Positions 39,991 through 43,847 of a DNA stretch of 64,000 nucleotides are shown one piece after another. The first letter of the stretch is position 1, and each line of letters begins with the position of its first letter. Below the pieces are notes generated by a model. That model made no database searches. It was not told the DNA's origin and was given only the letters and a program-made list of their open reading frames with translations. Source of the stretch: Escherichia coli (GTDB taxonomy: Bacteria; Pseudomonadota; Gammaproteobacteria; Enterobacterales; Enterobacteriaceae); the NCBI RefSeq assembly GCF_003334355.1, contig NZ_QOWP01000011.1. One strand, 5' to 3'. A program made the position numbers and the translations under genes.

Positions 39991-40031
39991 GGTATCTGAT
40001 TGCTTTACGCATGGTGAATACACTGCCCGTT

Positions 40032-40076
40032 TCAGGAAGTGCGCCACCAACCTTTCAGTACGAAAATTGCTTTCAT
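40032..40076 (-). CDS. trpL: trp operon leader peptide (14 aa, [14 protein letters not shown]) with tandem Trp codons
   Basis: Minus strand ATGAAAGCAATTTTCGTACTGAAAGGTTGGTGGCGCACTTCCTGA; below ORF-track size cutoff, found by direct reading. Confidence 0.93.
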
Positions 40077-41739: not shown

Positions 41740-43635
41740 ATGGCAGGGAAGTTTCGCTGCATTTTGCTGTTGATAGCAGGGCTGTTTGTATCATCTCTAA
41801 GTTATGCAGAAAACACGGAGATCCCTTCTTATGAAGAAGGGATCTCGCTCTTTGATGTTGAAGCCACTCTGCAACCAGATGGGGTGCTCGACATCAAAGA
41901 AAATATTCATTTTCAGGCGCGAAATCAGCAGATTAAGCACGGCTTTTATCGTGATTTACCACGACTCTGGATGCAGCCTGATGGGGACGCTGCACTGCTG
42001 AACTATCATATTGTTGGCGTCACCCGTGATGGTATTCCTGAACCCTGGCATCTTGACTGGCATATCGGGTTAATGAGTATTGTCGTGGGCGATAAACAAC
42101 GTTTCTTGCCTCAAGGCGACTATCATTATCAAATTCATTATCAGGTTAAAAATGCTTTCCTGCGTGAGGGGGATTCTGATCTGCTAATCTGGAACGTGAC
42201 CGGTAACCACTGGCCGTTTGAAATTTATAAGACCCGTTTTTCTCTCCAGTTCTCTAATATTGCGGGTAATCCATTTAGCGAAATCGATCTCTTTACCGGA
42301 GAAGAGGGCGACACATATCGTAATGGCCGCATCCTTGAGGACGGAAGAATTGAATCCCGCGATCCGTTTTATCGTGAAGATTTCACGGTCCTCTACCGCT
42401 GGCCTCACGCTTTACTTAGCAATGCCTCGGCTCCGCAAACGACGAATATTTTCAGCCATCTTCTTTTACCCTCCACGTCATCGTTGTTAATTTGGTTTCC
42501 GTGTCTGTTCCTGGTTTGTGGATGGTTATATCTCTGGAAGCGCAGGCCGCAATTTACGCCGGTAGATGTGATTGAAACCGATGTCATTCCGCCAGATTAC
42601 ACGCCCGGCATGTTACGTCTCGATGCGAAGCTAGTTTACGACGATAAAGGTTTTTGTGCCGATATCGTAAATCTGATTGTGAAAGGAAAAATTCATCTGG
42701 AAGATCAGTCTGACAAGAACCAGCAAATCCTGATTCGTGTTAATGAAGGCGCGACCAGAAATAATGCGGTATTACTGCCCGCAGAGCAGTTATTACTGGA
42801 AGCGTTATTTCGTAAAGGCGATAAGGTCGTTCTTACGGGGAGACGCAACAGAGTCTTACGCAGGGCATTTTTACGGATGCAGAAATTTTATCTGCCGCGT
42901 AAAAAGTCTTCGTTTTACCGGTCTGATACTTTTTTGCAATGGGGTGGACTGGCAATATTGGCGGTCATTCTTTACGGTAACTTGAGTCCTGTAGGCTGGG
43001 CAGGAATGAGTCTGGTGGGCGATATGTTTATTATGATCTGCTGGATTATTCCTTTTTTATTTTGTTCCCTTGAGCTTTTGTTTGCCCGCGATGATGACAA
43101 GCCTTGCGTTAATCGTGTAATCATCACTTTGTTTTTACCACTGATTTGTTCAGGCGTGGCCTTCTATTCTCTCTACATCAATGTCGGAGATGTATTCTTT
43201 TACTGGTATATGCCAGCGGGTTATTTTACCGCTGTTTTCCTGACCGGTTATCTCACTGGCATGGGGTATATTTTTCTGCCAAAGTTTACCCAAACTGGAC
43301 AGCAACGTTATGCCCACGGTGAAGCTATCGTTAACTATCTTGCGCGTAAAGAGGCGGCAACACACAGTGGGCGGCGTCGGAAAGGGGAAACACGGAAACT
43401 GGATTATGCGTTGCTAGGTTGGGCGGTCTCGGCAAACCTTGGCAGAGAATGGGCAGCACGTATCACCCCATCACTCACAGCGGCTGTTCGCGCCCCGGAA
43501 ATTGCCCGTAGCGGCGTTTTATTCTCATTACAGACGCACCTAAGTTGCGGGGCCTATACCAGTTTGTTGGGGCGAAGTTATTCCGGTGGTGGTGCTGGCG
43601 GCGGCGCGGGTGGCGGAGGCGGTGGTGGCTGGTAA
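41740..43635 (+). CDS. yciQ: DUF2207-family membrane protein with Gly-rich C-terminal tail
   Basis: 631 aa; signal/anchor at N-terminus, several TM segments, C-terminus ...SYSGGGAGGGAGGGGGGGW encoded by a (GGN)n run. Confidence 0.88.
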   Translation: MAGKFRCILLLIAGLFVSSLSYAENTEIPSYEEGISLFDVEATLQPDGVLDIKENIHFQARNQQIKHGFYRDLPRLWMQPDGDAALLNYHIVGVTRDGIPEPWHLDWHIGLMSIVVGDKQRFLPQGDYHYQIHYQVKNAFLREGDSDLLIWNVTGNHWPFEIYKTRFSLQFSNIAGNPFSEIDLFTGEEGDTYRNGRILEDGRIESRDPFYREDFTVLYRWPHALLSNASAPQTTNIFSHLLLPSTSSLLIWFPCLFLVCGWLYLWKRRPQFTPVDVIETDVIPPDYTPGMLRLDAKLVYDDKGFCADIVNLIVKGKIHLEDQSDKNQQILIRVNEGATRNNAVLLPAEQLLLEALFRKGDKVVLTGRRNRVLRRAFLRMQKFYLPRKKSSFYRSDTFLQWGGLAILAVILYGNLSPVGWAGMSLVGDMFIMICWIIPFLFCSLELLFARDDDKPCVNRVIITLFLPLICSGVAFYSLYINVGDVFFYWYMPAGYFTAVFLTGYLTGMGYIFLPKFTQTGQQRYAHGEAIVNYLARKEAATHSGRRRKGETRKLDYALLGWAVSANLGREWAARITPSLTAAVRAPEIARSGVLFSLQTHLSCGAYTSLLGRSYSGGGAGGGAGGGGGGGW

Positions 43636-43847
43636 TTAAGCTGATGTTAATCGAAACAAGCTTTAACCATAAAGATAGTGTAGTATGTTGCGCCTCAAAG
43701 CCAGGCCAGTTAAAACGTCGAGTCGTTTACTTAAGGCCTGAGGAGTTCAAACAGACTTTACTATCAGTGAGTCAGATGTAAGTTCTGACTCACTGTTGCA
43801 CAAAAGCATATCAGACGCCTGGGAAGGCGACACCAAAAGGAAGCTCT

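Follow-up and report, generated by a model that had tools for sequence, protein, structure and literature searches.

Contingency loci in Haemophilus, Neisseria, and Campylobacter change by slipped-strand indels, in which triplet changes keep the reading frame, and they are built of long perfect tracts that change frequently within clones. Sorting signals such as GlyGly-CTERM, PEP-CTERM, and LPXTG are conserved motifs that stand near the C-terminal end of envelope proteins, where a transmembrane helix and a basic cluster follow the motif. In parallel, the SSB protein of E. coli carries a Gly/Gln/Pro-rich linker and ends in ...DDDIPF-COOH, with its aromatic C-terminus docking in pockets of its partners. 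Here, we compare with these systems the glycine-rich tail encoded at the 3′ end of the yciQ gene in a 64,000-nucleotide stretch of Escherichia coli DNA (NCBI RefSeq assembly GCF_003334355.1, contig NZ_QOWP01000011.1; this whole stretch is called the window, and all positions given without further mention refer to it). The original prediction, made from the letters of the window, treated this tail as a length-variable repeat of E. coli and overlooked that it is a fixed-length amino-acid motif found throughout the DUF2207 family. We found that the yciQ tract very likely encodes the C-terminal signature of DUF2207, and that an exact-length polyglycine block together with its aromatic last residue is under strong purifying selection in this family. 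The explanation that best combines the evidence joins this family motif with rare slippage alleles in E. coli and with a terminal module of the protein, and we give this combination a probability of about 0.6.

The yciQ tract resembles the contingency loci in its slipped-strand, frame-keeping indels, but it is imperfect, keeps its length within clones, and is under constraint as a protein sequence. With the sorting signals, it shares a conserved motif at the very end of an envelope protein, whereas in YciQ neither a hydrophobic transmembrane helix nor a basic cluster comes after the motif, W631 being the last residue, and a cytoplasmic location is predicted for the tail. The likeness to SSB is a mechanistic analogy and consists of a Gly-rich disordered segment and an aromatic C-terminal residue; in SSB, however, the linker varies in length and the tip is an acidic peptide, while in YciQ it is the glycine block whose length is fixed. 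Within the DUF2207 family, of which SMU.243 of S. mutans (with a phenotype in acid and H2O2 tolerance and in biofilm) is an example, YciQ matches both Pfam domains and has the terminal G3-x-G7-W. The gene and the parts of its tail in the window are the following:

41740..43635, plus strand: yciQ coding sequence, 631 amino acids (open reading frame, Pfam, and RefSeq annotation)
43582..43632, plus strand: whole tail, S615-W631, S GGGA GGGA GGGGGGG W
43585..43608, plus strand: proximal, length-variable half, two GGGA units = (GGT)3 GCT (GGC)3 GCG, which carries every E. coli indel
43597..43632, plus strand: family motif G3-x-G7-W, G620-W631, with x = A623
43609..43632, plus strand: distal block G7-W, unchanged in all but one of the 15 E. 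coli tails read
43633..43635, plus strand: yciQ stop codon TAA

The final 18 codons of yciQ read TCC GGT GGT GGT GCT GGC GGC GGC GCG GGT GGC GGA GGC GGT GGT GGC TGG TAA, and residues 620-631, GGGAGGGGGGGW, make up a G3-x-G7-[W/F]-COOH block, which as a criterion for DUF2207 tails is our own operational definition. The tract of Gly and Ala itself covers 15 codons (43585-43629) and contains six GGT, six GGC, one GGA, one GCT, and one GCG, in total 13 Gly and 2 Ala. It far exceeds chance, being the sole 15-residue segment with at least 10 Gly when the 64 kb window is read in all six frames; outside the tail, Gly makes up 7.5% of YciQ. The tail peptide originally given agrees exactly with the translation of the 3′ end of yciQ, and the glycine run that it described as nearly uninterrupted over ~20 codons is real; its extent was overstated, as the tract proper has only 15 codons and is imperfect, and the start proposed at 43570 takes in four ordinary codons (G R S Y) ahead of S615. 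At the DNA level, the same codon occurs at most three times in succession and G runs do not go beyond three letters, and Tandem Repeats Finder recognized only a weak period-15 array (2.3 copies, 84% match, score 47).

The evidence for a family signature comes from protein comparisons at several depths. YciQ matches DUF2207 (PF09972) at residues 35-175 with E = 2.1e-21 and DUF2207_C (PF20990) at residues 284-540 with E = 2.3e-9, and no NCBIfam model matches it. In all 34 full-length homologues, down to 23% identity, a C-terminal Gly run leads to a last residue that is W or, rarely, F or R, and in the 31-sequence family alignment (21-57% identity), glycines of the tail make up nine of the 25 invariant columns, namely G620-622, G624-628, and G630. 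When 1.84 billion cluster representatives were searched with a profile, 24,866 family clusters were recovered; among the best 149 representatives, mutually less than 50% identical, W is the last residue in 144 and exactly G11-W the ending in 133, typically as ...(F/S)S-G11-W, and an acidobacterial-type clade ends in seven Gly and then F in 111 of its 119 members, typically as ...GGGF-GGGGGGG-F. The motif can therefore be written as G3-x-G7-[W/F]-COOH, with x being G, A, F, R, S, or V; most members have Gly there, whereas enterobacterial YciQ has Ala and the acidobacterial clade Phe. Distant DUF2207 proteins (23-30% identity) show it as [S]-G3-x-G7-[W/F]. Where the usual DUF2207 tail has GGGG(F/S)S, enterobacterial YciQ has instead a duplicated GGGA unit with Ala at motif position 4, and the Klebsiella version of the enterobacterial tail is SGGGFS-GGGAGGGGGGG-W.

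As an independent check, the DNA pattern (GGN)7-TGG-TRA was scanned in one genome per species, which gave at least 120 loci. The scan matches listed include Proteobacteria, Bacteroidota, Acidobacteriota, Actinomycetota, Bacillota, Chloroflexota, Planctomycetota, Verrucomicrobiota, Armatimonadota, Omnitrophota, and a lineage of the candidate phyla radiation (CPR), adding up to more than 10 phyla overall. DUF2207 was recognized with a local hidden Markov model in 103 of the 121 open reading frames ending at the pattern matches listed, and Pfam identified at least one more as a divergent DUF2207. Among these matches, 75 proteins are full-length DUF2207, and their tails are G11-W in 58, G3-x-G7-W in 8, G-S-G9-W in 6, and longer in 3; in the scan proteins examined that depart from G11-W, the register of 11+1 residues is mostly retained. 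The distance between the last folded motif (LPYAxAL) and the C-terminus ranges from 84 to 128 residues with the terminal block fixed, and therefore the Ser/Gly-rich linker ahead of this block is free to vary and the terminal block is not.

This conservation bears directly on the idea that the tail is a neutral low-complexity spacer, that is, a functionless disordered appendage held by mutational inertia. Such an idea can point to the disorder seen in the AlphaFold2 models, to the fact that E. coli tolerates the loss of 2-4 tail residues and of the whole of yciQ, and to the lack of any reported function in the literature searched. We nevertheless regard it as improbable because the exact length is conserved: a neutral homopolymer would drift, yet 11 residues and a terminal aromatic were kept in 133 of 149 representatives (below 50% identity) through synonymous turnover, and the neighbouring linker does vary. 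The Gly codons of the tail differ by lineage, and since these synonymous codons turn over, it is the peptide and not the DNA that is under constraint. The same turnover makes it barely credible that the tract works through its G-rich DNA or mRNA, as a G-quadruplex or some other regulatory structure, with the peptide being incidental. The coding strand certainly has many GG doublets, but Gly codons force these regardless; from lineage to lineage, the third positions of the codons change freely under a fixed amino-acid sequence, and neither an Rfam match nor a promoter-like or terminator-like site was found at the tract.

Within E. coli, the length of the tail does vary. We searched 5426 complete E. 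coli genomes with a 141-nt query spanning the tail and obtained 3967 matches, and from 60 evenly spaced rows of the ranked matches, the 17-codon tail (full 141-nt span) was counted in 46 (~77% of yciQ-bearing genomes), the 15-codon tail (135 nt) in 6 (~10%), and the 13-codon tail (129 nt) in 7 (~12%), the remaining row being strain LR-28, a deletion pseudogene. The in-frame length polymorphism that had been forecast is thus present, with 17-, 15-, and 13-codon tails and no frameshift arising from tail indels, and tail length is not invariant across strains. The tails of 14 E. coli loci and the window, 15 in total, were read directly, and their alleles are as follows:

Allele A17, tail SGGGAGGGAGGGGGGGW: window, K-12, 33F4, C7, THO-008, MS20673, D10, and SCU-171
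Allele B15, tail SGGGSGAGGGGGGGW: Nissle and FDAARGOS_1372
Allele B15 variant, tail ...GGGGGSGW: 98218
Allele C13, tail SGGGAGGGGGGGW: Ec-U14-1 and AR_0372
Allele D13, tail SGGAAGGGGGGGW: O157

In the alignment of the 14 loci, all tail indels are multiples of three, and all of them fall within the proximal (GGT)3-GCT-(GGC)3-GCG. Compared with A17, allele B15 lacks 6 nt (two of the three GGC), C13 lacks 12 nt (one GGGA unit), and D13 also lacks 12 nt (three GGC and one GGT), whereas the A17 alleles differ among themselves only by synonymous GGC/GGT/GGG at the codon preceding the second Ala. The distal A-G7-W is kept in 14 of the 15 tails, the exception being strain 98218 with G5-S-G-W. Indels in multiples of three at (GGT)3 and (GGC)3 are the expected footprint of slipped-strand mispairing at short triplet runs, and for this reason we think that the length alleles probably arose by replication slippage. 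Because the distal block is constant across DUF2207 at the amino-acid level, it is selection that holds the distal part, with the E. coli variation being restricted to the proximal unit.

It is a different matter whether the tract is slippage-prone. In the case of a hypermutable contingency tract, (GGN)n slippage would often change the length and so tune or diversify YciQ between isolates, and the in-frame variants of 17, 15, and 13 codons, mapping as they do to triplet runs, are in line with it. Slipped-strand mispairing stands as the probable origin of the indels, but the description as a slippage-prone simple-sequence tract does not, given that the codons are mixed, with at most three identical ones in a row and G runs of three at most, while perfect contingency repeats typically have at least six units. 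Only three length classes were found in the 60-genome sample, each of them a fixed haplotype: at 99% identity or more, 1672 genomes match the window/K-12-type segment, 316 the O157-type segment (129 nt; 8 more at 95-99%), 190 the Nissle-type segment, and 104 the C13 segment. The sampled strains of the K-12 haplotype, both laboratory and natural, have a single tail length, and the distal block is constant in E. coli and conserved across phyla. Tail length is stable over the clonal timescale, and hypermutability is, in our view, largely refuted and very improbable. We also looked for selection against slippery DNA in the G11 block of eight loci, where the longest same-codon run is 2-3, at or slightly below what the Gly codon usage of each gene predicts, and the difference is without significance (P = 0.27-0.88).

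That E. coli shows such variation at all has to be seen in the light of the fate of the gene itself, which this species can do without and which is in decay there under relaxed selection. The flanking genes yciO and rluB are present in 5423 of the 5426 genomes, yet only 3962 cover the yciQ region by at least 80%; in ~1460 of the 5426 complete genomes (~27%), O104:H4 among them, an unrelated 66-bp sequence replaces the 2.1-kb segment 41713-43813. In O157:H7/O55:H7, yciQ has lost ~300 bp internally (window about 42580-42880), equivalent to ~65-100 residues of the cytoplasmic domain (about 280-380), and its product of 527 amino acids also has the 13-codon tail. Strain H113 has an IS1 insertion in yciQ, and SCU-171, one of the 46 sampled rows with a 17-codon tail, a 1-nt frameshift upstream of the tract. 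In LR-28, whose yciQ is called a pseudogene by RefSeq, an out-of-frame deletion of ~220 bp joins a GGGCGGCG motif near 43369 (43369-43376) to GGCGGCG of the tail (43597-43605), and it looks like a microhomology-mediated event with the Gly tract as one end. With yciQ under relaxed selection and A-G7-W retained, it can be understood that a few in-frame proximal deletions became fixed in lineages.

Other variation surrounds the tail. The yciQ 3′ region is 87% to 100% identical among E. coli strains, and upstream of the tail there is a mosaic patch (43331-43530) in which K-12 and the window are 98-100% identical on both sides and 66% identical at 43431-43480, which suggests recombination between diverged yciQ alleles.

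The position of the tail in the protein was approached by structure prediction. The layout of YciQ, according to the secondary structure of its AlphaFold2 model, is in one line:

YciQ, from N- to C-terminus: signal peptide, periplasmic DUF2207 beta domain, transmembrane helix 1, cytoplasmic domain, transmembrane helices 2-5, cytoplasmic helical region, Gly tail

In the AlphaFold2 models, the N-terminal domain is a beta-sandwich, transmembrane helix 1 is followed by basic residues, and a cytoplasmic alpha/beta domain, four transmembrane helices with a basic cluster (RRRK after transmembrane helix 5 in E. coli YciQ), a short helical region, and the tail come next. The tail is strongly predicted to be cytoplasmic because the N-terminal domain is exported by a signal peptide, there are five transmembrane helices, RRRK follows the fifth, and the natural LemA-DUF2207 fusions need the same orientation. 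A paper on the S. mutans DUF2207 protein likewise predicts an intracellular C-terminus “rich of glycines and serines” (PMC10457818). Compared with the PDB, the YciQ model showed only a weak likeness of its N-terminal domain to ribophorin I/OST1 and to the N-terminal domains of M1 aminopeptidases (template-modelling score about 0.2), which says nothing about the tail.

A cytoplasmic tail of this kind might protect the protein. Gly-rich tracts impair the grip of AAA+ unfoldases, and FtsH starts degradation at cytoplasmic tails of ~20 residues. A polyglycine end that is “slippery” to FtsH/ClpXP could thus guard YciQ against C-terminal extraction and degradation, and a tail that is predicted to be cytoplasmic, is terminal, and exceeds 15 residues suits such a role; the exact length and the invariant aromatic end, however, are left unexplained by it, and we hold it to be unlikely. 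In another proposal, the polyglycine is structured: in a probably oligomeric complex, G11 would take a defined conformation, perhaps as a polyglycine-II strand packed against other tails or by threading into a partner or into the transmembrane helices, and the aromatic residue would cap it. At about 3.1 Å per residue, a segment of eleven would span ~34 Å. In its favour, the length is exactly conserved and the aromatic end invariant, substitution occurs only at position 4 (rarely at 2), and an unrelated coiled-coil protein of Chloroflexales has G7-8-[S/F]-[W/F] repeats, but the monomer AlphaFold2 models show no structure in the tail, and in this specific form we consider the proposal only marginally less unlikely than that of a protective tail.

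The combined reading to which we give preference, i.e., family motif, rare slippage alleles, and terminal module, would work in the following manner. The flexible glycine chain, poorly gripped by proteases, would tether the aromatic C-terminal residue and its carboxylate, and the aromatic end would dock on a hydrophobic site in a partner, in the cytoplasmic domain of YciQ itself, or at the membrane interface. In doing so, the chain may take up a defined bound state, as suggested by its exactly conserved length, and the terminal module would operate within the LemA-associated DUF2207 system. The length alleles of E. coli probably stem from rare in-frame slippage deletions at the (GGT)3/(GGC)3 of the duplicated proximal GGGA unit. 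That G3-x-G7-[W/F]-COOH is a discrete module, having a defined structure or threading through a partner in a LemA/DUF2207 (perhaps TPM) complex, is a tentative proposal that we did not meet in the literature searched, and the reading as a glycine tether with an aromatic anchor is slightly more tentative still.

Several points weigh against this combined reading. The binding site of the aromatic end is putative, and the cytoplasmic location of the tail is a prediction. The tail has a predicted local distance difference test (pLDDT) score below 50 and does not dock, both in the AlphaFold2 model of E. coli YciQ (31-sequence alignment) and in that of a natural LemA-DUF2207 fusion (150-sequence alignment). 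No lemA gene is adjacent to E. coli yciQ, whose upstream gene is yciO, nor is one adjacent to the Klebsiella and Serratia orthologues. The fraction of canonical tails is also similar with and without LemA nearby, 38 of 46 and 16 of 23, respectively. Moreover, the best-150 lists and the G7-W scan favour canonical tails and sample the less divergent parts of the 24,866-cluster family, and the E. coli length classes come from the 60 sampled rows plus identity-band counts, which is not a full census.

The association with LemA is frequent outside the enterics. In four of five non-enteric loci, lemA lies directly upstream, often with a 4-nt overlap, and LemA (PF04011) is present at 41 of the 59 scanned loci. 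There are also natural LemA-DUF2207 fusions of ~820 amino acids (P0048 and P0153) that keep the G-run-W tail, and by their topology LemA is on the cytoplasmic side, where the tail is. As a partner of the tail, LemA was considered and found unsupported, tail canonicity being independent of LemA in the locus. Separately, proteins of ~850 amino acids with two tandem DUF2207 N-terminal domains (P0040, P0044, P0047, and others) keep the G-run-W tail too.

A similar tail style is found in a second family of envelope proteins. The TPM protein YgcG (K-12 ygcG, L019:6712-7584) resembles YciQ in having a signal peptide, a periplasmic domain, one or more transmembrane segments, and a Gly/Ser-rich tail with an F-S insert and a final W; unlike YciQ, it has a TPM_phosphatase fold and a looser tail with neither a G7 nor a G11 run, as read in this single TPM sequence. 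YgcG matches TPM_phosphatase (PF04536) and YciQ does not, so the tail style alone is what they have in common, and none of the at least 120 scanned loci listed holds a TPM protein with such a tail. A preprint on Psb32 describes glycine-rich C-terminal extensions in bacterial TPM homologues (bioRxiv 10.1101/2025.05.08.652833), and it is on this preprint and E. coli YgcG that the TPM parallel rests. Apart from this, two Chloroflexales loci (L069 and L079) encode non-DUF2207 coiled-coil proteins of ~570 amino acids, with no Pfam match, which have repeated G7-8-[S/F]-[W/F] modules and end in G8-W.

The literature that we searched, including yciQ, DUF2207, YgcG, LemA, TPM, and polyglycine tails, contained no study of the fixed length or the function of the tail; the existence of a Gly/Ser-rich C-terminus has already been mentioned in passing (PMC10457818; bioRxiv 10.1101/2025.05.08.652833). 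A pan-genome paper places yciQ among the “transcriptional regulators & DNA-binding” extended-core genes (PMC12595684), a label that the domain content of YciQ, that of a DUF2207 membrane protein, does not support. For E. coli genomics, the tail is ordinary; it is the low-complexity end of a membrane protein that is dispensable and little characterised, its few in-frame length alleles are fixed by lineage, and as it is not phase-variable, it is unfit as a marker of rapid variation. At the level of the window, the interest is modest, and at the level of the family, the regularity is a neat and testable curiosity, given that G11 plus Trp/Phe held constant in thousands of distant DUF2207 proteins is unusual for low-complexity sequence. 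The tail hence offers a sharp and cheap experimental handle on a large uncharacterised family and on its link with LemA, and if the discrete module proves true, this would be a rare homopolymer run with an exact length functionally fixed across bacterial phyla.

In the window, the genes are arranged in the order trpH/yciV (rnm), yciO, yciQ, and rluB, followed on the minus strand by btuR/cobO and yciK (open reading frame list, RefSeq names). The open reading frame 43545..43781 (+2 frame, 78 amino acids, Arg/Trp-rich), which overlaps the tail, was discarded as a gene, being a by-product of GGN codons read out of frame. At 43765-43795, in the yciQ-rluB spacer, the two 12-bp arms of an inverted repeat, CAGTGAGTCAGA / TCTGACTCACTG, match perfectly around a loop of 7 nt, and the repeat has no T run after it; the terminator scan did not call it, and it lies inside the segment missing from the yciQ-less genomes. 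Finally, Rfam matches Trp_leader at 40000-40055 on the minus strand (43 bits), clipped at the searched start of 40000, which is ordinary as the trp operon adjoins.

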